DNA of 58,635 nucleotides, filler included, from Sphacelaria rigidula (lineage: Eukaryota): assembly GCA_964200075.2 (NCBI GenBank). It is 7 parts of 7 records of this genome, joined end to end, with 100 filler letters (N's around TTAATTAATTAA, not from the genome) between each part and the next. Parts side by side here need not be neighbours in the genome. Positions count along the whole stretch, not along the records: positions 50,346 to 58,635 come from CAXNAA020011637.1; 6 more parts are not named here. One strand, 5' to 3'. The notes under the pieces are model-generated. The model made no database searches, had not been told where the DNA came from, and saw only the letters and a list, made by a program, of their open reading frames with translations. Within the stretch, counting starts at the first letter, position 1. Each line of letters begins with the position of its first letter. The position numbers and the translations under genes were made by a program. Shown in pieces: positions 14,358 to 58,386 of this stretch.

Positions 14358-14613
14358 GTCATGCTACGATAGGCGGGGGGGTATTTTGGGCCGCTTTCTT
14401 CAACAAAATTTCACTTCAACCGCCGGTTAAAGCAGCCAACAGTTGTTTGAATGCATGCTCCCGATAAATAACGCTCATTCATACGGCTTTGCACCGCTTT
14501 GACCCGAATACAAGCGCACCGCGAGTGTTTTAGATCGTTTGACGCATTTGTGAGCACATTGCTTCGTGGAATCGGACCCCCCCCCCCCCCCCCCCCCCCC
14601 ATCGTAGCATGGC
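14358..14613. mobile_element. MITE with G-run/C-run TIRs (host of poly-C LINE insertions elsewhere); this copy is empty
   Basis: gtcatgctacgataggcggggggg ... C24-atcgtagcatggc. Homologous bodies occur at ~37245-37805 and ~50430-50655. Confidence 0.75.
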
Positions 14614-20811: not shown

Positions 20812-21038
20812 GAGTCTTTCTACGCTGGCCCCCCTCCAAAGCCACGAAGAAAATGGCAATACAGCTCCTGGTGTTTGGTTTCAGGATGACTTTAACACCT
20901 CATGTGGGCAACATTGGCGGAAACAATTTCAAGCGTGGGAATTCCCAGTTGTCCGTTGTGCTCGGCTTTTTTCATTTCGATTTACGTGTGCATTTTGCTC
21001 CCCTAAACCAGCTACCTTTGGGGTGGGGGCTATCGAAG
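20812..21038. mobile_element. Copy of the 55158-55408 MITE family (others at 22735-22970, 25558-25806, ~16060-16240, 52960-53209)
   Basis: Shared core gcgcctcatattggcgacattgg...aagcgtgggaattccc...tgtgctcggctttt...tttcgatt and gatagccccc / gggggctatc ends. Confidence 0.75.
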
Positions 21039-21039
21039 A

Positions 21040-21426
21040 AGGACTCCCAGTAGTCGAGAGGAGGAAGTAGATGTGCAGAATTGCCCCTTTGGCGAAGCGA
21101 TAGAGAGCAAAACTCATATAATGGCACAGTGTGAACTGTACAAGGACGAACAGGACGTGTTAGAGGTGGCATGAAATCGTTTGATACATTAGACAGTGGC
21201 GAGAAAACGATCACTATATTGTACCAGGAGATAGACGGTGGCCACAGACGATGACACGAAAGGAATGAGATACGTAAAAGCCATTTGTGTAATGTATGGA
21301 AGAAACGTAATGAGCGCCCTAATGTTGAATGTTCTCTTGGAGACGGTTCTTCATCTCGGAACGGATGCGTGGTCAATAGTCAAGCGACTAAGGCAAGCAG
21401 CAAATGAGTACTCCCTCCCCGCCCCC
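21040..21426 (+). mobile_element. 5'-truncated LINE 3' end (ORF2 C-terminal zinc-knuckle region) ending in a C-run
   Basis: Decayed frame NCPFGEAIESKTHIMAQCELYKDEQDVLE...FDTLDSGEKTITIL..GDRRWPQT. Ends ggatgcgtggtcaatagtcaagcgactaaggcaagcagcaaatgagtac followed by a C-rich run. Confidence 0.75.
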
Positions 21427-23249: not shown

Positions 23250-23706
23250 GAATGGTGAGACATCTATGGGGCAGTGTGTAAGCCCTGCCTGTCTCTGAAA
23301 GTGGCAATACCAGGAAATGAAACAACTCATCGGAGGCTGCCATCCATACGCAAGAGAATCAATACTTCGGGCCGAACTCGCCGAACACATGACGGCGCTT
23401 CGCGCTTGGCGACTGATTGCGAGCCTGATCCAGTGAAACCCCGTCGTGCTCCATTCCGGCTTTGTAGGGATGCAAGGTCAATGGTCTGATGACTGTGGCA
23501 TGCAATATAATGAGTAACCCTCCCCTGCACCACCTCCGCGCCCCCGCCCCCCCACACCCCAGCCGACGCCGGGGGTTGTTTCNNNNNNNNNNCCCCGCCG
23601 TGCCCCCTTCCGGTTTTGTAGGAATGCAAGGTAAAGGGTCTGATCACTGGGGCACGCAAAAAAATGATTCCCCCCCCCCCCCCCCCGCCCCCGCCCCCGC
23701 CTCCCT
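23250..23706 (+). mobile_element. Two tandem 3' fragments of poly(C)-ended retroposon subfamily B
   Basis: ttccgg(c/t)tttgtagg(g/a)atgcaaggt...tga followed by a C-run occurs twice (ends at ~23520-23560 and ~23669-23706). The upstream body matches 33225-33464. Confidence 0.75.
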
Positions 23707-25010: not shown

Positions 25011-25041
<31 letters not shown>

Positions 25042-25073
25042 TTGGGGGGTGGGGGGGGGAGAAATAAAAGGGG
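24974..25073 (+). repeat. Poly-G tract at contig end
   Basis: Several G-runs longer than 20 nt. Confidence 0.9.
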
Positions 25074-26387: not shown

Positions 26388-28237
26388 GTGAGAGCTTTTT
26401 TCTTCTGTTGGGCGGGAGGGTGGGTGTGTATGTGTGTGCTCATTTGGTGCTTGCCTTGGTTCTTTGACCATTGACCACGCCTCCCTTTCGAGCCGGAGCA
26501 GGAGCGAGGTGAGGGGGCAGGGGTTCATCTACCGTTGCCCAGCGTATGTTGGTGTAGCTGGGCAAGAGGGGGATCTGACCTCCTTGACAGGCTAGCTAGA
26601 TAATGCTTTCCACCCCGAAAGCAACAATCCGCAAACCTTCACGCCGATTCTCGGAGTAAGATTTTTTTTCCCCACTAGGTATGGGGTGTGCCAGGGTTAT
26701 GAAGAGTAACATGCCGTTCTGGGACCTCCGTGAATTGTTGAGAACGTATGAAAATAAGAAACGCCGTACATCAAATGTTTTGAAATGCTCCATACTGCAT
26801 GATTGCATTTTTTCAGTGTCCACCTCCGAGAATCGGCGTGGACATTTCGGCTTTTGTGCGACAAAGTGGACCTGAAAGGTACCAACACCGAACTACTTTG
26901 TTTTTTCAGTGTTGGAACCACTTTTTCGGGAACGTTGAGCATGAAGATTACCCACTGTATTATTTTTCAGGGACGCAACGAGACTTTGTACCCACGTTCC
27001 TTGGAGTAGCGTCGGACGCGTGTACCGGCTTCTGGGGGTCCCTCACACGGGGATATCCGAAAGCCGGTAAAGGGCGGAGAAACTTCGACACAATTTCTGC
27101 AGTACTTTTTTTTTTTCCATTTGGAGCATCAATACCTACCGGACTGCCATGTTTGAAGGCGGTCGCGGCTCTTCAACGACAAAGGAGAGATCGTCTGGAG
27201 GCTTTCTAAGCTTTTTCTTCACATCACCAGTTAAAATCCAAGAACGCCAAACGCCGCAAAGCCGAAATACTACGGTTTCGGCTACAATTCGATCCCACAC
27301 TAGCGTTCTCATCTTTTTCCCGTTGGATTCCCCGGCTGGTGACGGTTGATGCAATCTGGAGCATGCGGAGATTGAGTGAAAATTGTGTTGAGCATTGATA
27401 TTTTTCAGAACAATTTCAAGGCTGCTGATTGGTCAATGCACTCTCTTGACCTTATTTTTCGCCCTTGGCGCCACTACCGTGGTGTTGAACAAAAATCAGA
27501 CTGTGTCAACCTGTTCAGTTGCCCGCGGCGGTCAGCATGATGTCGTGCATACGACCACGGAGTTAGGACCGCGAAAGGCTCTCTCGTGAGTGAATTTTGG
27601 GTCGAAAGCATGAAGCAGCTTGTATGCTGCACGGTTTTGTGCGTGAGTGTCGTATGTGATTTGATGACATGCGGGGGGGAAGCAGCTAGTCCGTGGATTA
27701 ATATTACTTGGAAGAGTGTCACGTATAAATTGCGTTGGTTGTCCTCACCGAGGAAGATTGTTTTTGCTATAATAGCGGCCCCGCTACGATAGTATGTTTA
27801 ATATCTTGATCGTGCATCCCAAGTTTTTGACACGTGGTGTGCATGAACTTGTTGAATGCAGGCGCCATACTTTGAATATCCCCTCCCCCCGCCCCCCCAC
27901 CCATGTGATATCCACAACATGTTTGTTCATATATATATGTATAATTTTATGTAGATGTTCAATGTAGTCTTGTTCTCTTTTGTGGTATTGGTTGTGTTGC
28001 TGGTGCTGGTAGCAGTGGAGGATTAGCAGTGATGCGTGTATTGGTAGTAGTAGTAAGTAGTTAGCAAGTGTCCATTCAAATGTGAAACAATTTTTTTAGG
28101 GATGTGAGCTGGCAGCTCTGGCCAGTTGAGGCGAAATTGTCCCCTGGCGCGGCCAGTACATCGTTTTTCCAGTCAATCAGCGAAGCCGATTAACTGAGAA
28201 TCATCGGCGGCGAGCGGCGCCTCCTCGAGACCCGATG

Positions 28238-28312
28238 CCCCCCCCCCTCGCTGGTCAATGGTCTGATGACTATGGCATGCATGATCATGAGTACCCCCCC
28301 CCCCTGGCTGGT
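28238..28312 (+). mobile_element. Very short 5'-truncated poly(C)-ended retroposon insertion with TSD
   Basis: C10-TCGCTGGT [caatggtctgatgactatggcatgcatgatcatgagta] C11-TGGCTGGT. Confidence 0.8.
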
Positions 28313-31949: not shown

Positions 31950-33224
31950 GCGAGTGCCCCAGGGGATGCTTGATTTTCGGAGTCCGAAAACGTATCACTG
32001 GTCATCTGGAGGGTTGGTCTAGAGGGAGGGAGTATTTTTTCACGTACCCCGATCCTGTAGTATTTGTTTCTGGCATAGTTCCAGATTCCAATCGTGGCTG
32101 AAAAGGCGTCACGTACCTCATGTTGTCATCACGGGGGTGGCATTCTGCGTATAGTTGATGTACACTGTAGTCAACGGTGAAGGTAGGGCTACCACTCAAG
32201 AGGATGGCAGTTCAACATTCGAGTCTTGAACGGTTTTCAGAATATTGTAACAAATCAATCACAAAGTGTAATACCTGAATAAAAAGCCCCGTACAGTGGC
32301 TGTTGGTAGCCCAATGAGAAACTCGAACCTCACCTCACTCTAAAGAAGAGGTTCTCAAGTGGTGACATCACCTTGCTCTACGAGACAATGTATCTCGTGC
32401 TGGTGCCTCTCCTAGCGCCCCCCCCGCCCCCGCCCCCCCGGCACTACGGTACCGACAGTTACGGGTCGGAATGAGGGGCCTTGCGACCAAAACTTCATCT
32501 GACAAAATAAATGCTTTGCAATAATAAACGCAGAGGAATAATGAACACGTCAGTAGATGGTCGCACCTGTACCGAGGCCCTCACGAACAGAACACACGCT
32601 TCGTCACTCACTAACTTGGTTTAGGGACAGCTGTATCGCTTGAGATCCCGCGGTTCTCGACACAAAAAGTAAGCCGGCCCACAGTATTTGAGAGCGCCGC
32701 GCATACACACAGCAGCTAGGGAACCTGGTTACACATTTTGCTCAAGTCGCGACAGCCGACCGGAAAAGCCCCTCGAAAGCCAAAAAACACTTTTTTTTCA
32801 TGTATTTGGGTTTGTTGCTGCTTCGTATCACTCGGGGACCTGGCTTGGGTGTTTCGAAAGCGCGCGCAAGAAACCGCAGTCCAATCCTCCGCTTCGTTGC
32901 CGAGATCTAAGCGTTGCGCAATCGGCACAACAGGACACTGCAACAAGAGGGGCACAACAACAACACGAGCAGCAGTTTCTAACCCCCTGTTGTTGTGACC
33001 CTATGCATGTGCGTACAGAAACGTCAGTCACAGGTTTTTTAGTGTAGAATGTACCAGGATAATGATACATTTTGTATGAGTGTTCTCGTCATTTCGAGGT
33101 AACGCGTTTTTTTTTTAATATGATTCGCCCGATAACGATCCAGTTCTTACGCATGCAGCGGTCGGGGTGCACTTCCCCGAAATGTAGTATCCAAAATCGG
33201 CCTCCATTCCGACCCATAACTGAT

Positions 33225-33464
33225 GGTGAGACACCCATGAGGCAGTGTAGAAGCCGTTGCTGTCTCTGGAAGTGCCATACCACAGCCACAGAATAAAGCA
33301 ACTCATGGTTGGCTGTCATCCAAATGCAGCAATATTATCAGTAGGCTTCGGGACGAACAATCTTCACAGGATGCAGCTCACCCTTCATGCGACTCGCCAA
33401 ACACACCACGGCGCTTCGCGCTTGGTGATCGAGTGTGAGCCTTGTCCGGCGAGAACCCGGCGTG
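33225..33464 (+). mobile_element. Body of poly(C)-ended retroposon subfamily B, cut by contig end
   Basis: Collinear with 23250-23450 (atggtgagaca...ctgtctctg(g/a)aagtg...cggcgcttcgcgcttgg). Confidence 0.7.
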
Positions 33465-37661: not shown

Positions 37662-37792
37662 CCCCCCCCTATCTGTGATTGCGAGTCTGGTCCGGCAAAA
37701 ACGCGGCGGGTTCCATCCCGGCTTTGTAGGGAGGCCAGGAAAATGGCCTTGTGACTACGGCATGCAAGATCATGAGTACACCTCCTCCTATC
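37662..37792 (+). mobile_element. Subfamily B 3' fragment inserted in the C-run of a MITE
   Basis: C8-TATC [tgtgattgcgag...gcatgcaagatcatgagtaca] CCTCCTCC-TATC gtagcatg. Confidence 0.8.
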
Positions 37793-40700: not shown

Positions 40701-41805
40701 TCGTTTGCTCTACACTGTTCTTCCTTTTCCGAAAGTTTTGTCAGAAGCGTGGGTAGATAATAGGCATTCTTCTAGCTGTGCCTTATTTTCACACGTCATT
40801 TTCGGTGGCCATATTTGAGGAGTTATGATGATGGAGCATGCCACCTCACTGGCACCATGCACAATACAAGCGACCCTGAGTAAGCGTCGGACAGCTGAAG
40901 CAGCATGTTTTGAGACTGCTGGGCGTACATCAGTTGATTGGTCTCATAGTTTCCGTGCTACACTACTACTACTCGCACTACCGCATGGAATCGCATATCA
41001 CTTGATACAGAGTGATGAGTGTTGTTGAACACGCTGTCGCCTGTGAATAGGCGGCAGTGCGCGTGGCCTCGTTAGTGTTTGGACGTGATTCTGGAAGAGT
41101 TCGCCGCCAACCACCCTGGAAGGTGCCAAACCCTGACCAGAAGCCATGAATTACTCGACGGCTAAATCGCTAATCTCCTATATATATCAACCATGTCGTG
41201 ATGAGCCCTCGATTTGAAAGCATGTCTTATATCATTCAGTGAAGTACGTCAACGTGACGCGGTGATGACATAACATGGAGAATCTGTGTGCTCAACGACC
41301 AAGGCTGCTTGCTTTGAGTTGACAGTTGGCAAAATGTGCCGCAGACATGGGAGGGGTTGAAAATGGATGATTGAAAATGTCTTGCTTTATTCTTCTTGGT
41401 TCATTTTAATGTATTATTTCATACCTGTGCACTCAAGAATGTTTTGCTCCTGCCTCGTTCTTGGATTCTCGTTCGTACTAATTTTGTTTTTTTTTCCTAT
41501 TTTGTCGACTTTCATTCAATCCCGGTGGTTAAAAAGGTTCAACCACGCGCTAATGGTGGAATGTGGGGGCGAGAGCGGACTCAGCAGTCAGCAAGGTACT
41601 GTAGCAATGGGCAGGACTTGGTTTGGCGGTACCAGTACCTGGCGGGGACGGAAAATGTAGTGAAGCGTTTGGGCAGCGAATGGAGGTGTCGAGGGAACAG
41701 GTGCGTACAAAACTCTAAGAACTGCAGTAGAAGTAGTACTACTACTAGTACTAGGAGGAGGAGGAGGAGGAGGAGTAAGGAGAGGAGGAGGAGAAGGGCG
41801 AGGTG

Positions 41806-41855
41806 GGGGGGGGGGGGGGGGGCGTACTCATGATCATGCATGCCATAGTCATCAG
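41806..41855 (-). mobile_element. Subfamily B 3' end with C-run (reverse strand), cut by contig end
   Basis: G-run followed by cgtactcatgatcatgcatgccatagtcatcag. Confidence 0.8.
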
Positions 41856-42501: not shown

Positions 42502-45500
42502 GCAATCTTTGCCGGATCCGGAGTCAAACTGCTGGCGGTTCGCAATTGTTTAACAAGAGTGGCACGACACCTTCGACGCATCGCCGCACGTATGCGAGCG
42601 CTGTTCGATCTTCGGGATCTGAAGATCAACTTTCGAGCGAAGCTCATTCTTGAAGGCTTGAAGAAAAGACTTTGACGCCGAGACCTGTTTTCTCTCGTTC
42701 CGACCCGGACTCAGAGAACATGGTAGTGCAATCGGCCGAGTCACTGGTTCTTGACGGACATGTCAGTGAGCCCATAATGGTGGATTCCGTCGCACACCCC
42801 TCGCTGGCCCCTGCTCTCCCGAATCCCAATGTTGAATCCGGAGTTAGAATTGTGCCCTCAGTCGAGTCGTTGCCCCTGGACACACGTGTCCAGCTTGGCT
42901 CTGTACCGGTTGCTTCAACCGTGGCACCCCGTCGCTTGACGGCTGCCAATTCTCGAGACGATTCTGTCCCGACGAAGCGCATCGCTTCTGGAGCAAGAGA
43001 CTTTATCACACGGGTTGCTTCCGTTACGGACCCCCTTCGCACGACTCTCGATAGTCCCATGCGCCCTACTGCACAGTCCAATGTCGGACCGGCAGTAGTT
43101 GCAGCCATGCATGCTGCCATGCAAACTATGCATCGCACCTCCTCGGCGTCGTCGCCATCGCCAGCGCCAGCCCTCATCGAGGCATTTACGGCTTTTTGCC
43201 ACGCAGCGCTCCAAGATCAATCGGCGTCTGCTCATGTGCAATTCAATGATGATTCTGCACCTGCCACGCCCACACCCGTACGTCTAGCATCCCGCTCGGT
43301 GACCTCGCGCCCCCCGTTGGTCACTCATGATAAATTCAACGAACATGAGTCCAGCCCTTCCTCAACGTCGCAGCAGAGCTTTACTCGCGCTTCGGACCGG
43401 CGTCGCACACCGAGACTTGGTTATGATCACGTCTCCCGTTCTAGCAGTTCTGAGGGCAACTCCCAGCAAAGCTTGAATTCATCGCGCGCTTCCACACGCC
43501 CGAAGAACATCGCTCATGGACACAAATATGACGGGAGTTCACGCCATGGTTCCAAATCATCTCGCGCTCCAAAGCGCCCGGTGAATGCTACCCATGGCCG
43601 TACTCACGAGGATGCCTTGCGGCACAGATCAAGTTCTTCGCGCGTTAACTCGCGCTCGAACAACTCCTATCATGCACCTTCGCGCATCTGTACTGCTCAG
43701 CATTTGTCACACAGCCGTCATGTACGCGATGATAACACTGTACATACTGATAACATCCACAACATATTTTCGGACATGTCATCGGCTCCGGAATCCTCAA
43801 TTTAGAGATCCGGCCGCACCTCATCGCACAACCGACGACCACGCACTGACCGCGAACCACCGTTCCGTTCCGACGCTGCGCTTATTCGTTCTCTGCAACA
43901 ACGTTTGACAGATCTTGAACAACAACTCGCAACCGCAACCATGGACACCAAATGCACTACCGCTGCTGCTAAGCCTACGAGGGTGACCACCCACGCCGCT
44001 CCCACTACCGCCGCAGCCGCCACTACCGTGTTCACTGCGCCTTCTGCCGCAGCCACTGCAGCCACGGTCCCAACTCCTGCTGCCGCCCAGCCTGCAGTAG
44101 ACACAGATGCGGATAGTGGTCCCACCACTGGCCCTGTCGGGGACGTCCCCGTGCGCTCGCCTCCTTCGGTGGAGGATCTTCCTCCGCTCGGCGACGAGCA
44201 CTGCCCAACCAGCCTGCTCTTACGCCTGTTCACCAACAGGCACCGCGCAGAACAGCAACAACTGATAGCTGACTATGCATCGCAGGAGCCTGCGCTGACG
44301 CAGGATATCCTTGGCAAACAACGCGACGCTGACGCCGCCGCTGGCCGCCTCCTTCCGGAGGAGCACGCGGATACACCCAAGGACCTCCAGCGGCAGGCCT
44401 CCCTTGCCCAATCCACGAGCATGGCGACCCAACGGGCGCTCGGGGAAGGCCGCACTGCGGCTATATCGGCTCAAAGACGGGTTCGCCAGCTCGAAGATCA
44501 CGTTCAACGGACCGCCCAAGCAGCGGCCTCGCCGGCGACCCGCCTAACTGATCATCAAGCCGCCCCGCCTTCCACCGACCACATACTCAGGCCCCACCTG
44601 TCGGCGCCCAACAGAGCGACGTATGTAATTCCTCACAAGTCCAACAGGACGTCGTCGGCTGCGACCGCTGCCGCCGCCTCGACACCTCCGACACCGCCGC
44701 CTCAAGGAGTTAGCTCGGCGCCGCACACAGGTTTTTCGCAAAACCTGCAACTTGCCCCACACGAACGAGTGTGACTTTCTCGGTCTACGGCCGATTATAC
44801 CGGCCCCTTCCAGCGCCGCAACCACCTCAACTGCTCCCGCCATGCTTGGAACAACATTTCCCAACGCATGTCAGCCGTCATTGGCAGTTACGTGGACCAG
44901 GGCGGTTTCTTCCCGGACAAAGGAATGTCGGCGATCACCTTGGGCCAATTGGTCCTTCAGGCAACTATCGGCAATAGTCCGCATATCCAGCGTTACGTTA
45001 ACACTGTCATCGGTCTTTTTGCGGCGCTACGCGCCGCTTCTGACTCTCATCTCGGCGCTCCCATCGATGGTGACGAAGATCAAGCTCCCGCCACATCCAC
45101 TTGCCGGGGACAGAAGAAAAATCACCGGCGCGACGACGATGACAACGATGGAGGAAATTCACGCCGCCGCCATGGCGGTGGAGGGTCCTCTTCGGGCGGT
45201 TCCGGACCAACCCGCCCGCCTCGCAAGCCGAAGGGCAAAAACACCGGAGGTTACTCGTCCGGATCATCCGCATCGGCCTGGAACCGGTCCAGTGCAGATC
45301 TTCCCGCCTCGGGCTCGGAGACCCCCTGGCAAGTGATTCATTGGTTGGCTGATGTTTCGGCCCGCATTTTAGGTTTGTCCGATACGGATACACCTGACCT
45401 TCCTTTGTCTTCTACTGCAGCCCACGCCTTAGCAACGGCTGTGGCTGACAAAGAACGTTCCGAAGCTAGCAAAAAAGCAGCTTCCGATAGAGCTGAGTCT

Positions 45501-45722
45501 GCCCGAGTAGTTGCAACACAGAGACAGTATATTCAGATGGATGTGGAAAAACTCTGGCACATCAAAACCATGCCTGCCGCGGATAACGAAGATTCGGGCC
45601 AGTCTACTTCTGCCCTCATCACGTCCATCCGCGGCACTGTTCGTAACATCCTTCACTTGGCGGATGTGACTGGCACATAACGTTTCGAAGATTCCGACTG
45701 GGTAGAGGGCTGGCGGACTCCC

Positions 45723-46560
45723 TTGCACAAAGCAATGCATCGATCGATCAGCCGCCGCTCTCCCGTCCTCGCTGCTTGTTTGACGCAGATTCTCGACGGA
45801 TTCCTCGCCGAGATGGACCCGGATCGTGCCAAGGGGAAGACCGGCCCGGTATTACACCCTGATTTGGAGAGGCGTCTGATCGATTACTTCGATAAAAGTG
45901 ACCAGGCTAGTGCCATCCAGAGGCTGAGCTCCTTCGTTGTCGCCTCTGATGCCCCTTTTGCGGACTATCTCCGCGAATTTACGCTTTTGGTTTCGGGTAC
46001 GATGGGATTCGGACGTCAGAACGGACCGAGTGACGCAATGTGTCAGACTTACGTTCGCAATAGCGTTGCTCAACAGTATCCGGCTCTGATGCCGTCGTTG
46101 TTTCCGCGTGTCTTGGCTCATCGCGAGGTGCCTTACGCCCCCGTCGATACTATGTGGTCTGCTTTTGTACACCAAGAGGGTAATCTAACGCCTGCCATAC
46201 GTGGCAAACCCCCAACGTCTGTGCGTACAAAACCTATGGTTGTGTCCTCCGCCCATGCCCAAGGGGCTCACGGCAGGAATTCGAGCTCGTCTCGCGCTTC
46301 ATGGACCCCCGACTCAGTCGCCGGCTCAGTTATGCATGTTCAGAGTACCAGAGATGCATTTAGCGCGACTTGTGAGGGTTGGCCGTTTTCCGAGGAAACT
46401 TGGGGTGATGTTTATCTGACTTCAACGACCGCATTCATAACCGGTGACCCCCATTTGTGAAACCCACTTCTTTCTTCTTCCGCTAGACGTAATGCCTTCA
46501 GCAGTCATGCCAACCGTTGCATCAACTGTGGTGTTGAAGGTCACAGCATGCGCGATTGAC
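45723..46560 (+). pseudogene. gag: Gag capsid-like region and CCHC knuckle
   Basis: DQASAIQRLSSF...FADYLREFTLLV. CINCGVEGHSMRD* at ~46518-46559 is C-X2-C-X4-H-X4 with the last Cys changed to TGA. Confidence 0.75.
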
Positions 46561-47559
46561 AGTCCATGCATCTATGCCTTTGATCTCATGAACCCTGAAT
46601 TGCAGGACAATGAACGCGCGTGGCGCCGATGGCAAAAACGCATGCACGACTATCGTCCACCAACTCGAAATTACCGCAACAATTCGAACCAACGTGGCAA
46701 CAAAAACTCTAATCGCGGTCGCCAACACAACAACAATCACGGAAGCCCTCGCCAGAACGATCAAACTTCTCGCGACAACAAACGTTCCGCTGGTAGACAC
46801 CAGCGGACGGGACCGACACAAAGTTCTCATCCCAACACCAGAAACCCTGGTACCTTCACTACGGATCGCTTAGATCCGTGACGTGCCGACGCCGGCGTTT
46901 TTCGGTCTTCCACACCGTCGATAGCACGAGCGAAGACTTTTCCAACACAGCCCGCGGAGTCCGTGTCAGAAATTGCTCCCTCGACTCCCTCGGCACTACC
47001 CAGAAGCGTAACTCACGGCCGTTCATAACGGCCCCCGTCTCGACCCTGCACAAAATTTTCAACACAGCCCGCAGAGCCCGCGACTAAGATTGTCCGCCCG
47101 ACTCTCCCGGCACTATGCAGCAGCGCAACTGACGGCCGTTCAAATCGACCCCCGTCTTCGTCCCTCCACACACCGCGTAACAGTTGTGACACCCCGCGAC
47201 TCAGACCTACACCCGGCACTGAACTTGGTCCTTCAGTTTCGAGTGTAAGTCTGAGGTGTGGGAAGACCAACCGCCAGTCCCTGAGGCAAAGGCTTCCCTC
47301 AGCGACCGCACGCACAGGTAGCAGCAAGCCTTCTTCAGCTGACCCAAGTGTCGCTGATTTGAACCTGACCACATCGGATATTGTAATTCGCAATCAGTTC
47401 GATCGGGCTCCTTCCCCGCGATTTTCGAGACGCACGGACCTACCTCCGGCCGGTTTTACTAACAACCGCCCCAACATATCTTCGGCTATGCCCCAACAGT
47501 CAATAGATTGTGTCTATGAACCTTATTTCGGTATCGCCTCTGCTACTCTACCCCAGGTC

Positions 47560-49210
47560 CACACGGTGGCTCCTGCACAGTCGAATTCCGATCCTCCTGC
47601 TGACATGCTTCAACGCTTATCACCAGATTCTCGGGATATTTTCTTGCACATGTGGAACCAACTGCCGCCACACATGCGCGACATCAATTTTGACCTTCAT
47701 GGGCCCGGCTGGGAACCGGCAGTCATCCAAGAACTCAGTGATGTCCTGCTACAGTACCCAGACCGATTTTCCCGATCCAAGACGCATCTTGGGCATTGCA
47801 AAACACTGCCCTTTGAGGTTACCCTCCAACCCGGTATCTCGCCGATTTCTTCTCGGCCGTACTATACCAACCCAATCCTTACCAAGGAACTTAACGCCAT
47901 CTTGGACGCGTATTCGGGAGCGGACTAATACAACATTCCTCTTCTCCTTGGGCCTCGCCACTTGTGGTCATCCCTAAAACGGATGGAAACATACGCATAA
48001 CCGTGAATTATCAACGGTTGAAACACGTCACTGTAGTCGGTAAACTTCCAATTCCCCGCATTGATGAAGTCTTCGACTCCTTGGGCGAAGGAAAAATATT
48101 CAGCACCTTCGACCTCGCTTCTGGATTTTTTCAGAATGCTATACACCCTGACACAGTCCCACTGACGGCTTTTTGTACCTCGTCCGGACTTTGTGAGTGG
48201 CTTCGAGTGCCACAAGGCGCCGCCACGACCTCGGGATGCTTTCAACGCTTAATGCACGCGTGGGGCCTCGAGCACATCATCATGTACTTGGATGACGCTA
48301 TCGCTTTCGATGCCTCACCTATTGCACATATACGCACTCTACGAGAATTTCTCTCTCGCCTACGTACACACGGTTTGAAACTGTCTCCATCCAAAGCTCG
48401 CCTTGGTGCGACTGACTTGGATTTCTTGGGGCATTCCATCTCGCCAGCAGGCCTGCATCCGGATAGAAACAAAGTCAAGGCGATGACTGATTTGCCGATG
48501 CCAACTAACATTTTTCAACTTCGCTCATTGTTGGGTGGGCTATCCTACTACCGCAAATTTTTGCCGAATTCATCGAAACGGATTCGCCCCCTTACTGAGC
48601 TACTCAAGAAAGGAGCCATGTTTTCTTTCACCACAGAAATGGAGAATATCACCCGCGAATCACTCCAGACGCTCACCGAAAAGCCCGTACTTTGCTTTCC
48701 TGATTGGGAGGCAGTACAAGATGGCTCCCGCCTTTTCCAACTCCATACTGACGCCAGCACAAATGGTTTTGGAGGGCTTTTGAATCTACTTCAGTTTGAT
48801 GGCTCTGTCCAATCCATCCTTTATATCAGTCGCCCTACCCTGCCCAATGAGACCAATTGGAGCCCGCTAGAACTGGAAGGCGGAGTAATCACTTGGGCCA
48901 TTGAGCGCCTTCGACAATATCTGTTTCACGTGCCCTTCGAGATCTATATGGATCACGGAGCACTTGAACAACTCGCCAAGGTTGGTGAACACAACCCTCG
49001 TGTACAACGATGATCGGAGTTTCTAACAGCATACCAGTATACCATTTAAGCACCGTCCAGGCAAATCCAACGGGAACGCGGATCTTCTTTTCCGCCTACC
49101 TCTGCCGCCTACGGCTGCAGATTTCAGCCCGGCTTGCCGTTTAACAAAACCCGATGAACCCGAAATTTACGCGATCAGACGTTTTTCAACGCCTATTTAC
49201 GCCCTCGACC
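47560..49210 (+). pseudogene. pol: Gypsy pol: reverse transcriptase + RNase H (frameshifted, premature stop)
   Basis: PWASPLVVIPKTDGNIRITVNYQRL, FSTFDLASGFFQ, YLDD, FLGH, LHTDAS, ELE and DH motifs. Frameshift near 47925 and TGA at 49011-49013. Confidence 0.95.
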
Positions 49211-49699
49211 TCAGTGCCCGGAAACCGGTATGCATATGGGAGGACCTCGCCCTCTACCATATGACGCCATCTTGGGTGGGATAAAGTCCACTACCTCCGA
49301 TTTTGTCGATTTTCGCACTTTCGGTACTCGCGCGCAACTCTTTGCGGAGACATCTCCATTCACCCACCTTATCTCCGCCCGCACCACTCCGAGTGCCCCG
49401 CCGCCACCAACAACACCTGTAACCCCTATGAGCCACCCAGCACACTTCCCACGGACCAACACGCTAAGCTTCGCAAAAAGTTCTGCACCGTGCGCCACGC
49501 GCCGCGAACAATCTTCTCCGCGCACTGATACAACCCCGCCGCCTACAATGGCGCCGCATATATCTCCGGCCCCCGAGCACGGACCTGACGACTCGTCTCC
49601 AGCTCCCGAGACAGAAATTGACGTCGGCATTTCTGTCCCCCGTCGCCTATTCTTCCGCCGCCTGCCCTACCATGTTTGGTCGACTCGCCAGCGGAAGTC

Positions 49700-50245
49700 A
49701 AGGCATCAGTAAGGCAGCCAACGAAACAATTTTGAAGACAAAACTGTCCCTCAATTGGACAGGACCATTCAAGGTCCTGACAGTCGGACCATCGTCATCA
49801 TCACCGAATTAAAAACCCGTCGGTGACAAACTGCTCTATCTCGACTTGCCTCACGACTTCCAGGGCAAGGACACCAAGCCCCGTGCCTCCGTGCACAGAT
49901 GCAAACCCTGCACGGATCCGCATGATACAAGCGACATACCCAAGTACCTACCTGCCGGACTCACACGGTATGTTCTCAGCAGCTACTCGACCAAGTCCCC
50001 GCCCTACCACGTTACAACCGACGACGTGACGGAACAGCCCCTTCGGTTGGCTGTGTCCTCCATTTCCGGCTACCAGATAACCCGTGGTCGAGGAGGCAAG
50101 ATCGCTGCATGTATAAGACACACTGGCGCGGTCTTCGGAAAGCGTCTTGGGAACGCGAATCCGACCTGCAATTGCGCCGTCGTGCAATCCTCCTTTACTG
50201 GACGCAATCCCAACATCAGCATCTTGCTCACAGCAAGAAATATCG
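49700..50245 (+). pseudogene. Integrase C-terminus (GPF/Y motif) and chromodomain
   Basis: KLSLNWTGPFKV and VSSISGYQITRGRGGK...YKTHWRGLRKASWERESDL. Confidence 0.8.
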
Positions 50246-50551
50246 NNNNNNNNNNNNNNNNNNNNNNNNNNNNNNNNNNNNNNNNNNNNTTAATTAATTA
50301 ANNNNNNNNNNNNNNNNNNNNNNNNNNNNNNNNNNNNNNNNNNNNGAGCACTGTTTCAGGCTTGAACCTCATCTCGGAGTTAAACCTCAATTCGCACAAT
50401 TTGTTGTTAAAGGTTGCTCTAACGAGCTTGTTATAGATGAATAATGCTCATTCATACCGATTGACACCGTTTTGAACCAAATACAAGCGCACCACTAGGG
50501 TGGCAGATCGTCTGACACACGTTCGAGCCTTTTTTTTCGGGCAATAAAATA

Positions 50552-50640
50552 CCCCCCCCCTACGCTCCGTCTCGAAAGGGATGCGTGGTCAATGGTCAAA
50601 TGACTAAGGCAAGCAACAAATGAGTACGCCCCCCCCCTAC
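50552..50640 (+). mobile_element. LINE subfamily A 3' fragment inserted in the C-run of a MITE
   Basis: Perfect 12-bp TSD CCCCCCCCCTAC (50552-50563 and 50629-50640) around gctccgtctcgaaagggatgcgtggtcaatgg...aaatgagtacg. Confidence 0.88.
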
Positions 50641-51214
50641 CGTAGGATGACTCCCGAGTAGTCATCTCAAAAGACATGGAAGTACCAGGATCCGACCGAG
50701 TTCGATGATCATTGTGCGTGCCAGATGGTTTGAAGTAACTCTCCACCTGCAGCGCATGCTCGAGACAACACCAGCTGCAGGCAAGCCAGGCTTACTTTAG
50801 ACGAAGACCAGCGACACCTCTGATATCGCAGTCCATGGATGGCGTAAATGCTTCTTGCATTATCGGCGACAGGCTAGTGGCTGCTGTACGTGCTGGGATC
50901 AATCCTAAAAGCTCTGTGGAAACATTGGTAGATAATCTGACACAAAGCATGACAAAAGTATGACACATGAGACTAGTCGACTGAAAAATGACCAATAAAT
51001 CCATGGCAAGTTTACCACTTGGTAGATATTGAAGATAGTTCTCGGAAAAATACGGTTTGAGCAAGTGCTGATAATCATAATTGTTCTTTTCGCACATGAG
51101 CCTGAGGTATGGAACAACACCTGTCGCGATATGTGCTCAACACCAAATGTCACCTCCTTCGTGACACCTTCTTCGTGACAGCCCTGGAAAAATTGCGCCG
51201 CTTTTCAGCAAGAG

Positions 51215-51223
51215 CACACACAG

Positions 51224-51255
<32 letters not shown>

Positions 51256-51259
51256 ACAC
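51215..51259. repeat. (CA)n microsatellite
   Basis: Imperfect CA run. Confidence 0.9.
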
Positions 51260-51521
51260 TACGCAGCATTCCTGCTGCCCCTGGGCTTGCCAAGTTGCTG
51301 CAGTGCACCAGCTTGGAAAAGAAGACCTCACTTGATACATACAGTTTTCTGGCTACATGTGAACGTTTTCGAGTACAGTAGCAGTTGCGCAGCACGCACC
51401 TCTCGCTGCTGCAATTGCTATGCGGGTGATGTAGCGTCGAGGGTAGAGCGACAGAGTCCGACGCAGCTCGAATGGCCATGTCAAGGCTGCATCATTACAC
51501 CACAGCGGAATTGTAGGCTTG

Positions 51522-51732
51522 TGTGATGCGTGAGAGGACCGCGTGCATGGAGGACCGCATCAGAATTTGAACACCCCTTTGGTTAGGGTTAGGGTTAGGC
51601 GTAGTGTTGGGGTTAGGGTAAGGGGCCTGGTACCTGCAGGGACTGACCCGATTGGTTTTGAAAAACGTCCATCCTGAGGTATTTTAAAGTACGGCGCGGT
51701 CCTCTAAGCACGCGGTCCTCCCAGGCATTACA
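51522..51732 (-). mobile_element. Ginger-like MITE with (TTAGGG)n
   Basis: TGTGATGCG...GCATTACA termini and a perfect 4-bp TSD CTTG (51518-51521 and 51733-51736). Confidence 0.9.
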
Positions 51733-51764
51733 CTTGTACCCGAGAGAGGTTGGACATGGGTAGC

Positions 51765-51965
51765 AGCGATGGTGTGTAGTAAAGTCATTTCCATGCTGTA
51801 CTGGCGGGAAATCATGCCGTTCTGGCGGAAACGATGACGAAAACTCGGTCCCCCGTGGAGGAGGCGGGCTTGTTGTTGAGGGAGTGGATGGGATGCCTTC
51901 GATCCGTTTTTTTTGTCAAAACTCGACACACGGGCAACAGCGCTCATCCCCCGGTAGTACGCTCT
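51765..51965 (-). pseudogene. Possible highly decayed non-LTR RT fragment
   Basis: YYRGMSAVARV resembles the NYRGISLVAH motif. The remainder is very degenerate. Confidence 0.35.
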
Positions 51966-52543
51966 GTATGATACGACCCCGCGTCTTCTACCAGGCGATC
52001 CTATTGGTCGCAAATGGATTTGGGTGTTATGAAACGACGCTGGTCGTTCGGGGCACTCGAAGCGACACTACTGCATCGCAGGATGGAGCGAAACACCAAA
52101 CCAGACATATCGCTTCTTACATCGGGGGAGGGGGGGCATGGAGGGAGTGCGGTCAATCAGACGCTTTATCGGTGGAGGTGGCGGCAGAGGCGGTCGCGAT
52201 AGGAACGATGGCGGAGGAGGAGGCGGTGGAGCAGAGTCGTGGTTATGCGCAAGGTGCAAGGTTGTGAACCGGGGCATCACTCCGTCCTACGAAGCACCGT
52301 GTGTGCAACCGTCCCAGAGTACCCGAAGAAGGGCATGGTCATGGGGGGAGGGATGGGGGGGGGGAGCGGATGCTAGACGAGGGTTATGGGCGGAGACGGG
52401 AGCAGGGACGGGCACGGGGGCGGGGGCGGGGGCGGGCGCAGTGGCAGCGGGGGTACGGGTGGTGGGCACGGGAACGGGGGCGGCAGCGGCGCGGTGGCTC
52501 GAGGGTGTATAACTCTACGATCTGTGCGTTCGATGCTTCAGAA

Positions 52544-52772
52544 TGTAATGCATGAGAGGACCGCGTACTTAGAGGACCGTGCCGTAGTTCAGAACACCTC
52601 AAGATCGATGTTTTTCAAAACAAATCGGGTTAGTCCCTGGACGTACCACGCCCCTGACCATAACCCTAACCCTAACCCCAACCCCAACCCTAACCCTAAC
52701 CCTAACCCTAACCATGGGGATGTTCAAATTCCGATGCGGTCTCCTAAGCACGCGGTCCTCTCACGCACTACA
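52544..52772 (+). mobile_element. Ginger-like MITE with ~8 CCCTAA-like units
   Basis: TGTAATGC...GCACTACA termini, flanks AGAA / AGAG (3 of 4 match). Confidence 0.9.
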
Positions 52773-54290
52773 AGAGGCAAGGCTGAATAGAACTCGTGAG
52801 TTTACCAGAGCATTCCACAACTATGCGCGCCCTCTGCTTGTACTACGCTATTGGCGCCATCCGCAGTTAGAGGCCGCTTGTCTTATCCAGCTAAAAAATA
52901 ATCATCACAAGTCGCTTTTTGGCTCGCCCAGAGAAGCCCTGAACCGTCGTCCAAGAAGCTGACACTTTCTATGATAGCCCCCCCCGAAAGAAGTGCATGG
53001 TTTTGGGAGGCAAAATCTTCACTTGAATCGAAATGGGAAAAGCTGAGCACAATGAACACCTGGGAATTCCCACGCTTGGGGTCGTTCCAGCCAGTGTTGC
53101 CAGTATGAGGCGCTCCATGCAGTCTGAATCCAAACATCAGACGCTGTACGGTCATTCTTTTCGTGACACTTTTGGGCTGGTTTTGGGGGGGCTGTCGTAT
53201 AAAATGTCAGCTCTACGTAAAAAATCGGATCGGAATCGCCTCGAATTCATTTATTCACCGTGCTTATGGATTTTTCATATTTTTTGTGCTCCTTGGCACT
53301 CGATTCCGTTTCGCCGATATGAGGAGGCAGGGGGGAAGGGGGGAAGGGGGTGCGGTATCAATTACAACGTTGTTAGGACAAAAAATCAACTTAGTTTGAC
53401 TTGGATATTTCTTTGCGATAAAAGCTGCAACATGACCATCTAAGTTTGACCTGAAAGCTTTTTGCGAAAATACCGTCGTTGGCGACATATCTGTAATACA
53501 GCAACTGAAACGACAACAAGAACAACAAGTACGGGATTCAAAATATCCGCCCAAAAATTCCCCTACCGTCAGTGCTTCACGGGGTTTATTGTATTTGCGT
53601 CGAAAATCCCGAAAGCGTCGCGTGAAACGCTACGCTTGGGATACCGGTTCGGGACCGCCTCGAATTAATGTCTTCACCACGTTTTTGTGTTTTGTTTTTT
53701 GGATGCTCCTTCGCGTCGATGCTATGTCGCCGACCGTTTTATCTGGGGGGGCACAAGCGTGTCGTTGCTTGTTGATCCAAGGACTCCGACTTTTTTTACT
53801 TGAATTTTTGACTGCGAGTAAAAGCTCCAACGTGACCGTCTTTGCTCGAGTGTAATGCCTCTTCGCGATACTTCGACCTCTCCGCTCGTATCTGTCAATG
53901 TATCTAACCAAACCTCACGGCTCTGGCGTACTTGTTTCCAGTTGCACAACCAGGCCAATGCTCATGGATCTCTTCAAGCAACTCCGATCACGTTTAATCT
54001 TATGTACCGGAGGCAGCGAAGAGTGTTCGAAAAGTTTCTTGGGACACGGGTCTGCGGCGACATCGGGTGTGGAAGGGTATTGCACGTCCAGCGGGAGTCA
54101 GGTCGCGCACATGTTTTGTGGAGGGCGAAGGGCGGAGGGCGGACGGCGCAAAAGAGGTTGTGCAAATAGTAAGCCACTGGCTGGTGTGTCGCGTTTCGTT
54201 GCCTCTCATGTTGTAATTTCTACAATTTGGGAAATATCGATGCACAAGCAATTACCTACCGGTAATCTTCCCATTGTGACCCCACCCATG

Positions 54291-54804
54291 GTATAGTAGT
54301 TAACCTTGTCAAGAAAGGAGACAAGGCCGATAGAGATAATTGTAGAGGGATAACACTACCGCGCACGGTAGGAGAGATATTCCGCATGATTCTCGACGAT
54401 AGAGTAGTAAGGATGCTAGAAAAGGAAAAAAAAACAGCGAGGGGACAGCGGGTTTTAGACCCAACCGCAGCTGCGTAGACCATGAATACACACTAGGTGA
54501 GAATATTCAGGGTAGGAAAGACGTCGGGCTGTTTTTTTCTGGACGTACAAAAGGCTTATGGCACAGCATGGAGAAATGGGCTGTAAAAGCGTTGTGGGAA
54601 ACTGCGATCAGACGACAGACGTGGAGAATGGTGAAGATGACAGAATGTGCCAAAAGTGCGTTGATGCTAGACGGGAAAATATCGAAATAATTTATGTTTT
54701 ACAAGGAGTTGCACAACGATGTACGGTACCACTCTCTTCATCCAAGGTACTTGTTAATGACCAGATGACAGCAATAGAACCAGCGAAGCAACAAGTCAAG
54801 GTGG
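54291..54804 (+). pseudogene. LINE reverse transcriptase fragment (N-terminal RT blocks)
   Basis: KKGDKADRDNCRGITL...GFRPNRSCVDH...FLDVQKAY...W.NGL...LQGVAQ.C with frameshifts. Truncated by an LTR before the xADD motif. Confidence 0.88.
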
Positions 54805-55567
54805 TGTAATGGCGTTACGGTGCTGTTATGGCAAGGACAGGCTCACTAGGCAAGGCAAGGGTCCAGTCCGTAGACTGAGCAGCCAGGCAACACAACAAAG
54901 ACCGACTCACACAAGACGTGTCCGACAAATACAAATATCTGACGCGCAACTTATGTCTCCTTCTTTATGGTCTGGTCTCGACCTTCCGGTATCCACTTAA
55001 TCAATCCAATCTCACGCTCAGTATATCAGTCTCCCCGGTGTCGGACTTTTAGCTGAGAGAGGGACAGTAGACGGTAGCGACTGGAGATCGAGACTTCGTT
55101 CGTGCGAGGACAAACGAAGCCGACATCATCTCTGCAATATACAAGTTCACACTCGTACGACACTTTCTACGATAGCCCTCCCCCCAAAAGTGCATGGTTT
55201 TGAGACGCCAAATCTTCACTTAAATCGAAAGGGAAAAAGCCAAGCGCAACGAGCAGCGGGGAATTTCCACGCTTGGGTTCGTTCTAGCCAATGTCGCCAA
55301 TATGAGGCGCTTTATGCAGCCTGAACCCAACAATCAGGCGCTGTATGATCATTTTTTTTCGTGACACTTTTGGGCTGGTTTTAGGGGGGGCTATCGTAGA
55401 AAGTGTCGTACCTGACCAACTCTGAACAGACCTGCAGTCCGAGGTCTTAGAATACCCGAAATGCAAATAGTCAGACTCATCAACGGGTCTGACGCGGTAT
55501 GGAAAAGCTGCTGTACCCAATAGATTGATGCTCAAAGCATTGTAAGGAAACACTCCCGTATCCAACA
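54805..55567 (-). repeat. Probable 3' LTR of the minus-strand Gypsy element (contains a MITE)
   Basis: On the minus strand it starts TGTTGGATAC after a purine-rich tract (gaggtgtgggagtggg...) and ends CCATTACA exactly where LINE homology stops. Confidence 0.6.
55158..55408. mobile_element. MITE with perfect TIR, TA-flanked (Tc1/mariner-like)
   Basis: TA-CGACACTTTCTACGATAGCCC ... GGGCTATCGTAGAAAGTGTCG-TA. Confidence 0.85.
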
Positions 55568-55737
55568 ATCCCGTACCCACTCCCACACCTCATAAGAAGG
55601 AAAACGTATACTGCGTCGAGGAGCAGAAAAACTGCTTCGAAACGCGGAAACACAAACTGCTTCTTCGTGCTAGCGATCAACAAAGAAACGCAATTGCTTC
55701 GGCGTCCTAGCAAAACGAAAGGGAAAATCAGAAAAGG

Positions 55738-55880
55738 TACAACAGGAAGCAGAGCTTCAACCTGGGGTAATCCAAAGAGGAAAAACGGCAGGTAGGTACA
55801 ACAGGGAGCAGAACTTCGGCCTGGGGGAATCCAAAGGCACAACAGGGAGCAGAGCTTCAACCTGGGGGAATCCAAAGAGA
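55738..55880. repeat. Three ~37-bp direct repeats in the Gypsy 3' non-coding region
   Basis: caacagg(g/a)agcaga(g/a)cttc(aa/gg)cctgggg(g/t)aatccaaag occurs three times. Confidence 0.85.
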
Positions 55881-56269
55881 AAAAAATGCAAGATCAGTAT
55901 GCGACCACGCATGTTGGTCGGAAGCACAATCTAAAAATCGGTGGTCCAACGAGATCGAACGCCAGCCGAAAGGAGATACCATAGCTCCAGCAGTCGTAGA
56001 TGGTAGGTGTTCAGTAATTCTTCGATCGTCTTCCGATGTAGGTGGTCCTGCTGTGGATGTTGTAGAGTCGAGTTCTAGTGAAGAAGGGAGGGCAAACGAT
56101 GCTATAGGTGGGGGGGCAACAGTTGCAGCGAAGGAGCGTGGTTCAAAGGGAGGCGTGGACGTCGTGGGTGTGGTCGACGTTGTGCTGGGGACCGTGGCGA
56201 AGTTCTTTGAACTTAAAGCGCTGGAAACACGAGGGTCCGCGTGGTGCAGATGGGCTGGTGGTGTATAGT

Positions 56270-58386
56270 AGCTTGAGCTGTATAGGTCCACGGTCATCGA
56301 TGGAGCGCACAATGTATGTGTCGGCAGAAACCAGGTTGGCGGAGTGGATCTGACCCAACCACCCGAAGTTATCGCTGCCCTTGGACCAAAGGTAGCTGCC
56401 CTTGGGCAGTATTCGCTGGTTCACGAGGAACTTCGTCTTTCAAGTCTTGGTGGGTACAAGTTCGTAACCACTGACGACGAAGCGTGGTCCCTGATCGCGG
56501 TGAAGTTCACAGGCTGCTGCGCCACGACGCATGTTGCGATATTTCTTGTTGTGAGCAAGATGCTGATGTTGAGATTGCGTCCAGTACAGGAGGATTGCAC
56601 GGCGGTGCAATTGAAGGTCGGATTCGCGTTCCCAAGACGCTCTCCGGAGACCGTGCCAGTGGGTCTTATACATGACAGCACTTTTGCCACCCTCGACCAC
56701 GGTTTATCTGGTGGCCGAAGATGGAGGACACGGTCAATCGGAGGGACGGGTTCGTCAGGTCGTGGGTGGTAACGTGGTAGGGCGGGGACTTGATCGAGTA
56801 GCTGTCGAGAACATACTGTGTGCGTCCGGCAGGCAGGTACTTGGGCATGTCGCTTGTACATGCGGGTTCGTGCATGATTTGCATCTGGAAGTCGCGAGAC
56901 GCGGGGTTTGGTGTCCTTGCCCTGGAAGTCGCGAGGCAAGTCGAAATAGAGCAGTTTGTCACCAACGGGTTTATCATCCGGTGATAATGGCGAAATAGAG
57001 CGCAGTGTTTTATCTCTCCAGGTGCGAGGCGTTGATAGCGTCTTGTTCGCGCACGAGGGCAAACGCTTTGCGTTGTCGTGAATGCGCTAGCTCGTGATAG
57101 GATATCTGGTCCTGATCCAATCCTTGGTAGCCATCGAAGGTGTGTTGCTCAAACACGGTGATGGGCAGCCGAGGGTAACGTCCAAGATGGAGTTTGTTCG
57201 GAGAAAGGCCTGTGGCAGCGTTAACCGAGTTGTTGCAGGACAAACTGATGTGCGAGAGATGTAGGTCCCAGTCATTTTGGCTGTCAATAACAACCATAGA
57301 GAGCATCTGGGCCATGGTGTGGTTGACTCTTTCGGTACCACCGTTACCGTTCGGGTGGTAGGCGCTCGTGGCAATTTTGCGGATGCCCAGGAGCTCGTAA
57401 TGCTCATCAATATTTAATCAAAATTGCTGACCTGTGTCCGAAAGTAGTCGCTTCGGGCAACCGTAGTGCTTACTGTAGTCGTGGACAAATATGTCGCCCG
57501 TTCCGGCGGCAGTGAAATCTGCGGCGGTTACCGCGTACATGGACGCGTGGCGGCTGAAGCGGTCAGTGAAGAGTAAGACGTAGAAGTTGCCGCGACCTGT
57601 GGTCGGTCGAGGGCCAAACCAGTCCAAGGACACAAGGTGGCCTGGCTCATTGGGGAGTCCCATAGAGATGATGGGCCAGCGTACTGTCTGTCGTGAAGTT
57701 TACGGGCTTGGCATTTGAAGCATCGCCCAATCCAGAAGTGGGTGGAGATGTCCATGCCAACCCACCAATAGAAGCGTTCCAAGTGCGCTAGGGTGGGAGT
57801 GACGCCAAGGTGACATGACAAGTCTGTGTGGCTGATATTGACGTCGGCATTTCTGTCCCGTCGCCTATTCCCCCGCTGCCTACCCCACCATGTTTGGTCG
57901 GCTCGCCAGCGTAAGGTCAACAACGAGTCTCTCGCCAGCTACCGTCACCGCCATTGGGCTCGCGATCAAAACGCGGAACCGCTGTGTCGCGCAGCCATCC
58001 GGTACTTACACAACTCGACTGTTCAGTCCCTTTTCCATCCGCCCTTCTGGCCCCGGTTGGCACACCGCCACCACCAGTTATTTCTGACGTATGCGAGCTC
58101 GTGCGTAAATGTCCCGGGAGCAGGAGCTGAGTCGTCAGCTCCATACTCGGGAGCGGTAGATGTTGATGGCGCCGTTATGGGCGGCGAGGCTGTATCAGTG
58201 GGCGGCAAAGATTGTCCGCGGCGCGTGGTGCACGTTGCAGGAGTTTTTGCGGAGCGTTGCGTGCTGGTCCGTGGAACCTGTGTTGCGTGGCTCGTGGAAT
58301 TTGCAGGTGTTATCGGTGGCGGCGTGGCACTCGGGGTGGTGCGGGCGGCAGACCGGGAGCGTGTGTTGTCGGAGATTAGGTGGGTG
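56270..58386 (-). pseudogene. Gypsy integrase (HHCC finger, DDE core) + chromodomain, same family as 42672-50245
   Basis: HTDLSCHLG...YWW...CFKCQARK, VSLDWFGP...LFTDRFSR, LLSDTGQQF and YKTHWHGLRRASWERESDL. Frameshifts, deletions and an internal inversion. Confidence 0.92.

Follow-up and report, generated by a model that had tools for sequence, protein, structure and literature searches.

A LINE of Sphacelaria rigidula with C-run 3′ ends and a probable preference for C/G homopolymers as insertion sites

The window analysed here is the whole stretch of 58,635 nt from the Sphacelaria rigidula assembly GCA_964200075.2. It consists of seven pieces of about 8291 nt, with spacers of the form N44-TTAATTAATTAA-N44 every 8391 nt (8292-8391, 16683-16782, 25074-25173, 33465-33564, 41856-41955 and 50246-50345), so that distances across pieces are meaningless. 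In the last piece, positions 50552-50640 comprise the sequence CCCCCCCCCTAC (50552-50563), an insert of 65 nt (50564-50628) which starts with GCTCCG and ends with ATGAGTACG, and a second CCCCCCCCCTAC (50629-50640). The two flanking copies form a TSD of C9TAC that agrees at 12 of 12 nt. The insert codes for the final 18 codons of an ORF, followed by a TGA stop and GTACG. Two long copies on external contigs, L001 and L020, have 3′ ends identical to its last 64 nt (64/64), and by eye the preceding G is also the same in both; in tblastn, the insert matches residues 1364-1381 of the ORF at 100%. An empty allele, seen as a joint that skips the insert, was absent among the joints listed for the contigs of four runs (X1, X2, X4 and X5), which were compared with 50346-58635. 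The features of the window are collected in Table 1.

Table 1. LINE copies, their TSDs and the MITE copies of the window, by position
Feature	Position	Strand	Basis or remark
5′-truncated LINE copy, subfamily A, 65 nt	50564..50628	+	identity to the L001/L020 3′ ends, and tblastn
5′ TSD copy of the 50564 insert, CCCCCCCCCTAC	50552..50563	.	
3′ TSD copy of the 50564 insert, CCCCCCCCCTAC	50629..50640	.	
MITE family 1, three window copies	14375-14614; 37259-37800; 50436-50700		
Host MITE upstream of its right-hand C-run	50436..50551	+	resumes after the insert at 50641; 14463-14587 vs 50436-50560, 74%
C24, unfilled MITE paralogue	14577..14600	+	left arm G7 at 14375-14381
Subfamily B copy, 43 nt	28252..28294	+	TSDs 28238-28255 (C10TCGCTGGT) and 28295-28312 (C10TGGCTGGT)
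Subfamily B copy, 106 nt, in the right-hand C-run of the second MITE copy	37674..37779	+	TSDs 37662-37673 (C8TATC) and 37780-37792 (ACCTCCTCCTATC)
A-like copy, 377 nt, holding the ORF's C-terminal part with its CCHC region	21035..21411	+	blastn to L020 4741-5168, 72%; tblastn to residues 1248-1381
Subfamily B copy, decayed C-rich flank	23252..23519	+	
Subfamily B copy (23593-23669), then C17 (23670-23686)	23593..23686	+	interrupted on the 5′ side by a 10-N gap
Subfamily B 3′ end (41823-41855), then, on its strand, C18 (41805-41822)	41805..41855	-	copy cut by the piece end
Subfamily A copy, 64 nt	26436..26499	-	start base is that of the 50564 copy
Old subfamily B copy, C/T-rich flank	312..400	-	
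Subfamily B copy	33223..33464	+	3′ end hidden by the piece end/spacer
Old RT-coding fragment of a related LINE	54287..54803	+	blastn 73% to L020 3256-3783; tblastn to residues 751-928

The preliminary description of this DNA had reported seven 3′ ends of this kind, and all seven exist (21411, 23519, 23669, 28294, 37779 and 50628 on the forward strand, 41823 on the reverse strand). Comparison of the window with itself added three further copies, two on the reverse strand (26436-26499 and 312-400) and one on the forward strand (33223-33464). The 5′ truncation points vary among members of the family, giving copies of 43, 64, 65, 106, about 350 and 377 nt, and all of them end in ...ATGAGTAC(G), with an exact 3′ junction in all copies compared. 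The final 60 nt or so are conserved between the two subfamilies, A and B. Subfamily B has one additional base ahead of ATGAGTAC, and in three of four window copies a TAG replaces the AAG that subfamily A carries 19 codons earlier; judged from the sequence, the end of subfamily B is probably an untranslated relic of the stretch that is coding in A. The copy at 23593-23669 lies head to tail behind the one at 23252-23519. Overall, the LINE density in the window is about one copy per 6 kb. A Pfam search of the 141 open frames of at least 100 aa in the window found LTR-retrotransposon domains only and no LINE RT, and tblastn with the ORF detected no endonuclease-coding part in the window.

Several other features share the window with these copies. 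A GC-rich LTR-retrotransposon body extends over 42654-50245, with RT and RNase H domains at 47895-49010, and a separate integrase zinc-binding fragment lies on the reverse strand at 57531-57938. A repeat unit of 184 nt with short telomere-like (CCCTAA)n is found at 12574-12941, 13887-14048 and 52542-52727, and a long (CAA)n/(CAACGA)n microsatellite opens the first piece (1-180). A cluster of G22, G29 and G9 stands at a piece end (24974-25059), and its upstream side on the C-strand lies beyond the piece.

The 3′ ends had been described as always followed by a C-run and never by poly(A), and the flanks bear this out. In six of the nine visible flanks at least 10 of the first 15 nt are C, the remaining three, which belong to older copies, have 7 C per 15 nt, and an A-run is present in none of the nine. 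At least 10 C in 15 nt occur at 779 of 115,824 window positions (0.67%), a background against which we estimate the binomial probability of six in nine at about 1e-11. Outside the window, the long copies continue into C8 (L001), C13 (L020) and C10TC9 (L021), again with no A-run, and C-rich flanks are also seen in the decayed copies L024, L026, L029 and L033, which lie in the same bin on other contigs. We regard an assembly artefact, or a chance association where C-runs are plentiful in the genome, as practically negligible: the window does contain 22 C or G runs of at least 8 nt, but this is set against six of nine flanks over a background of 0.67%, and against the recurrence of the same junction in three other assemblies and in the contigs of the four runs.

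The contigs of the four runs extend this observation to many further loci. Behind 50637, 646 contig ends leave the reference in X1, 741 in X2, 354 in X4 and 136 in X5, and the consensus of these loose ends continues with 17-21 more C before agreement drops to 0.40-0.48. Since agreement is lost past the C-run, the flanks differ, which rules out a single repeated locus. Run lengths in such contigs are unreliable because short-word assemblies break in long homopolymers. The summed depth over 50346-50622, a span that also takes in most of the LINE insert, exceeds that of the lowest-depth bins hundreds to thousands of times in each of the four runs. This figure is no copy number; it does show a very high abundance of the MITE, the LINE tail or both. 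The C-run end is supported genome-wide and in independent assemblies.

Moreover, the contigs contain joints that lead back by 70-75 nt, from 50633-50638 to 50564, with counts per joint of 13-40 in X1, 12-62 in X2, 5-23 in X4 and 1-3 in X5. These joints represent head-to-tail arrays with a unit of 65 nt and 5-10 C between units. In X1 and X2, the plurality sequence upstream of 50564 consists of 12 nt of LINE preceded by C's, which suggests that another unit, of about 77 nt, is also common. The start base of the arrays is shared by the solo copy at 26499. Random 5′ truncation leaves this recurrent start unexplained; a fixed start could result from array amplification, from a preferred stop of the RT or from a short template RNA. 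The arrays with their identical unit start, together with the 26499 copy, are what one would expect if the short copies were pieces of a satellite, made of LINE tail plus C-run and spread by recombination or by break capture in fragile homopolymers. We nevertheless hold this to be very unlikely, since the clean TSDs include bases outside the run (TAC, TATC and TSGC), truncation points (43, 65 and 106 nt) and subfamilies differ among the copies, and the 3′ junction is always the exact end of the element.

The preliminary description had further connected the 3′ end to a LINE ORF, and in the external copy L020 it is indeed joined to a frame with APE, RT and CCHC regions. L020 has one open frame of 1382 aa, on a contig that may not include the 5′ end of the element. 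The frame contains Exo_endo_phos (residues 193-415, E 8e-11), Exo_endo_phos_2 and RVT_1 (E 7e-32) domains and, near its C-terminal end, a CPCG...H....C motif; an RVT_1 domain was also found in P0001 (E 5e-33). The in-frame stop is the TGA within AAATGAGTACG, and GTACG alone (5 nt) stands between this stop and the C-run. L001, which was recovered from metagenome contigs by a pattern scan with the 3′ end, is 96% identical to L020 over 3037 nt. The link of the window copy first placed at 21040-21426 to a zinc-knuckle region also holds, as 21035-21411 matches ORF residues 1248-1381 including the CCHC. The element is an APE-type non-LTR retrotransposon (LINE). Scanning of genome contigs with the 3′-end pattern returned seven loci, comprising two real copies on stray eukaryotic contigs within bacterial bins and five chance matches in bacterial contigs. 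A further pattern search returned nine places, five of which were chance matches, and scans of viral contigs gave no match.

The closest named relatives of the ORF are proteins of Ectocarpus sp., with 45-62% identity, and a brown alga is the probable source of the element. Matches in the PDB are the RTs of L1 ORF2p and R2, the best being L1 ORF2p, which covers the RT core only (E about 2e-21). The Exo_endo_phos_2 domain and the neighbours of the protein in the atlas give a weak hint that the element may belong to a Jockey/I-like group; LINEs listed for a kelp genome are labelled Jockey, RTE, L1 and CRE (PMC4421812). A C-terminal peptide, G-C/R-V-V-N-G-x-x-A-M/K-A-x, is kept in relatives down to 38% identity (P0002-P0030), which indicates that the terminal 60 nt code for protein and have been conserved in a broad clade. 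Some of these relatives lie on megabase-size contigs and fall into clusters of hundreds of members, so the clade is widespread and present in high copy elsewhere. Ahead of the endonuclease, L020 codes for a conserved domain of about 100 aa (reverse strand, 999-1560; ..VLVFGVPSDMTRIEFKRKCDEVGLY..GEHFRVTL..) that is also found in P0002 and P0009-P0012. As a guess from the sequence, this N-terminal domain might have an RNA-recognition-motif fold, fused in place of a separate ORF1. At the RNA level, RNAalifold on eight copies lent no support to a conserved 3′ stem-loop (-5.7 kcal/mol, compensatory change in 0 of 14 pairs). The 65 nt kept in the shortest copies, which hold the last codons of the ORF, may be the part that is recognised by the RT.

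The sites at which the copies are inserted bear on the origin of the C-runs. The MITE of family 1 that hosts the 50564 insert has a G/C-run within both terminal inverted repeats, its left arm reading ...CATGCTACGAT-G(n) and its right arm C(n)-ATCGTAGCATG..., and in paralogous copies C(n)-(T)ATCGTAGCATG is uninterrupted. Because the opposite arm carries a G-run and the unfilled copy carries the C-run as well, this run belongs to the MITE and is not the relic of a LINE. The C24 at 14577-14600 had been presented as the empty allele of the filled site; this does not hold, since the MITE in question lies on a separate piece and is a paralogous copy. The report of two insertions in the C-run of the same MITE was correct, one being the 106-nt copy of subfamily B (37662) and the other the 65-nt copy of subfamily A (50552). 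Two of the three right-hand MITE C-runs in the window are therefore filled, at the same base and by copies of different subfamilies and lengths. Two independent MITE insertions at the same base are strong evidence that the edge of the run is targeted.

Together with the insertion at 28238/28295, these two provide three clean cases in which, as originally noted, the TSD starts with the C-run. The TSD at 50552/50629 agrees at 12 of 12 nt, the one at 28238/28295 at 17 of 18 nt (C10-TCGCTGGT vs C10-TGGCTGGT, the final 4 nt of 28238-28255 being shared with the element's own sequence), and the one at 37662/37780 reads C8-TATC vs ACCTCCTCC-TATC. In all three, the first nick falls between the run and the base preceding it and the second nick 3-8 nt past the run. 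The run stands on both sides of the copy, and each of these insertions has duplicated its run, which agrees with the earlier proposal that new runs are seeded in this way. The 5′ and 3′ run lengths are 9/9, 10/10 and 9/8; since the 3′ run never exceeds the 5′ run, no C's were contributed by the element in the clean cases.

As a general rule for 5′ junctions, a C-run at the target was borne out in part. Among the seven copies whose 5′ junction can be placed, three have a clean TSD (of 12, 18 and 12-13 nt) and two have a C-rich 5′ flank with no alignable TSD, namely the copy at 26499 (reverse strand), both flanks of which are C-rich and decayed, and L029. The remaining two, at 21035 and L021:349, show no C-run on the 5′ side and no visible TSD, and their 3′ ends are followed by TCCCTCCCCGCCCCC and C10TC9, respectively. 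These two copies suggest that the element can bring a C-run along to a site with no run of its own; alternatively, the 5′ copy of their target may have been lost. The targeting of C/G runs would thus be a preference and not a strict rule. Also against such a rule, many of the C/G runs of 8 nt or more in the window are free of a LINE.

The two copies with a C-rich 3′ tail and no 5′ C-run also speak for a LINE in which the run is purely a tail. The element would then bring or produce the C-run itself, from a templated mononucleotide repeat or through untemplated G's added by the RT, target choice would be indifferent to homopolymers, and runs at 5′ junctions would reflect landing in older tails. 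The hundreds of copies that continue into long runs and the presence of head-to-tail arrays fit this explanation as well. We consider it unlikely, however, because the run at the two MITE sites is the MITE's and not that of an older LINE, because the three clean TSDs show no extra tail, and because the use of two of three right-hand MITE runs at the same base, at about one copy per 6 kb, is by our own estimate far from random.

A second MITE family was noticed in the window. It is about 255 nt long, with the terminal inverted repeat GTACGACACTTTCTACGATAG followed by an inward C-run, and lies at 52958-53218 and 55155-55405, with further occurrences near 22746, 42482 and 20990-21034. Contig joints from 52961 to 53219/53224 and from 55152 to 55406 indicate that copies or alleles free of this MITE exist. 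Joints from 50637/50638 to 55159 were considered as insertions in its C-run and rejected, the junction being in fact at the outer end of the MITE. The bases after the C-run of the family 1 MITE resemble a spliced-leader motif, which raised the idea of a dinoflagellate origin. With up to 3 mismatches this motif gave 0 matches, its core CGTAGC occurred 15 times vs 17.7 expected, and the idea was rejected.

On balance, and with moderate confidence, we favour a LINE for which C/G homopolymers are sites of target-primed reverse transcription (TPRT), with the G-run as primer. The bottom strand would be nicked at the 3′ end of the G-run, which is the 5′ edge of the top-strand C-run, and the G-run would then serve as primer for reverse transcription. 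The template RNA would carry C's at its 3′ end, gained by read-through into the run of the donor or by slippage, and these could pair with the G-run primer as the poly(A) of L1 does with the T-run at its nick. A second nick would follow a few bases past the run, so that the entire C-run is copied and opens the TSD. In such a cycle the C-run would be both the tail of the element and its preferred target, each insertion would make a second run, and repeated hits in these runs could build the head-to-tail arrays of short 3′ fragments. The initial proposal of a mirror image of L1 is upheld in part, for the LINE itself, its C-run end and its run-starting TSDs, and fails as a strict rule on the two copies without a 5′ C-run; the C-ended RNA, the pairing of its tail with a G-tract primer and the G-quadruplex link are hypothetical parts of it.

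It is also conceivable that there is no tail at all and that an R1/R2-like endonuclease is specific for the edge of the G/C-run. Reverse transcription would start at ...GTAC(G) on a C-less RNA, and every 3′ C-run would be target DNA. The run lengths in the three clean TSDs (9/9, 10/10 and 9/8) and the exact 3′ junction in all copies agree with such a system, and deletion of target sequence on insertion could account for the copies without a 5′ run. On the other hand, an RNA that reads through from the donor must contain the run. A template free of C's would have to be processed exactly at its 3′ end, and no signal for this is seen, as the ORF stops 5 nt from the terminus. We judge this explanation improbable, and the window data cannot separate it from TPRT with a G-run primer and a C-ended RNA. 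The data are compatible with the run as tail, as target and as both.

A wider reading of the G-run-primed system is possible, though we offer it tentatively and think it rather doubtful. The clade with the GCVVNG..AMAA peptide may have exchanged poly(A) for poly(C) with no poly(C) polymerase, the run being made at the target, and the element may be the main generator and spreader of the long G/C tracts in these algal genomes. Under this reading the run would arise from pairing of read-through C's with a G-run primer plus slippage, or from untemplated G's added by the RT at the nick. If true, the element would supply landing sites for itself and give rise to satellite-like arrays, and it would allow a natural test of the extent to which pairing between tail and primer suffices to set the target choice of a LINE.

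Comparison with known systems places the element close to several and apart from each. The target choice of L1 has been attributed to the TTTT/AA preference of its endonuclease and to pairing of poly(A) with the T-run, two contributions that are hard to separate. Like L1, the element has APE and RT domains, 5′-truncated copies and, in the three clean cases, TSDs; TPRT would be a further common trait, as would a homopolymer tail able to pair with the homopolymer at the nick, by which the TSD starts with the base of the tail. Unlike L1, the homopolymer is a C-run and not an A-run, AATAAA is absent, L020 has a single ORF and no separate ORF1, and the TSD takes in the entire run of 8-10 nt. Moreover, the stop codon, 5 nt before the terminus, leaves hardly any 3′ UTR, again unlike L1. 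We know of no post-transcriptional addition of poly(C), and a C tail must therefore arise in another way.

The eel UnaL2, the zebrafish L2 types and the I factor (TAA) have simple-repeat 3′ tails that are recognised by their own RT. They resemble the element in lacking poly(A) and in having a short 3′ repeat that can pair with the nicked target and extend by slippage. Here, in contrast, the repeat consists of single nucleotides, conservation at the 3′ end concerns coding sequence, and a stem-loop is unsupported (0 of 14 compensatory pairs). Site-specific elements of the R1/R2 type make use of read-through target sequence. With them the element shares a precise 3′ junction, and target sequence downstream of the donor could likewise guide the next insertion; it differs in that its target is a scattered generic homopolymer and not a unique gene and, compared with R2, in its APE endonuclease.

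APE-type LINEs in simple repeats, as listed in a 2013 review, include Waldo (ACAY), Mino (AC), Kibi (TC), Koshi (TTC) and Dong (TAA) (PMC3812793). The element is alike in being APE-type and, for part of its copies, in being inserted in and flanked by a simple repeat: the repeat stands on both sides of the three clean copies, two copies are C-rich on both sides, and it is absent from the 5′ side of two. It is unlike them in that the repeat is a mononucleotide C/G run, a class absent from the list in that review (PMC3812793), and would be preferred, not obligatory. Full-text searches turned up no account of a LINE that has a poly(C) tail or targets C/G runs, within a range that ended short of the bracketed spelling 'poly(C)', Repbase and subscription journals. 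We therefore place the element with L1 and the simple-repeat LINEs in its probable mode of action, and apart from them in its use of C/G homopolymers, its near lack of a 3′ UTR and its single ORF.

A natural LINE of C/G runs would be an independent system in which the preference of the endonuclease can be separated from tail-primer pairing. Compared with A/T tracts, such a system combines stronger G:C pairing and rarer runs with an RNA tail that is impossible by ordinary polyadenylation. Furthermore, because each insertion copies its run, the element would explain part of the unusually frequent long C/G tracts of this genome, and such tracts matter for replication stability as well as for sequencing and assembly.
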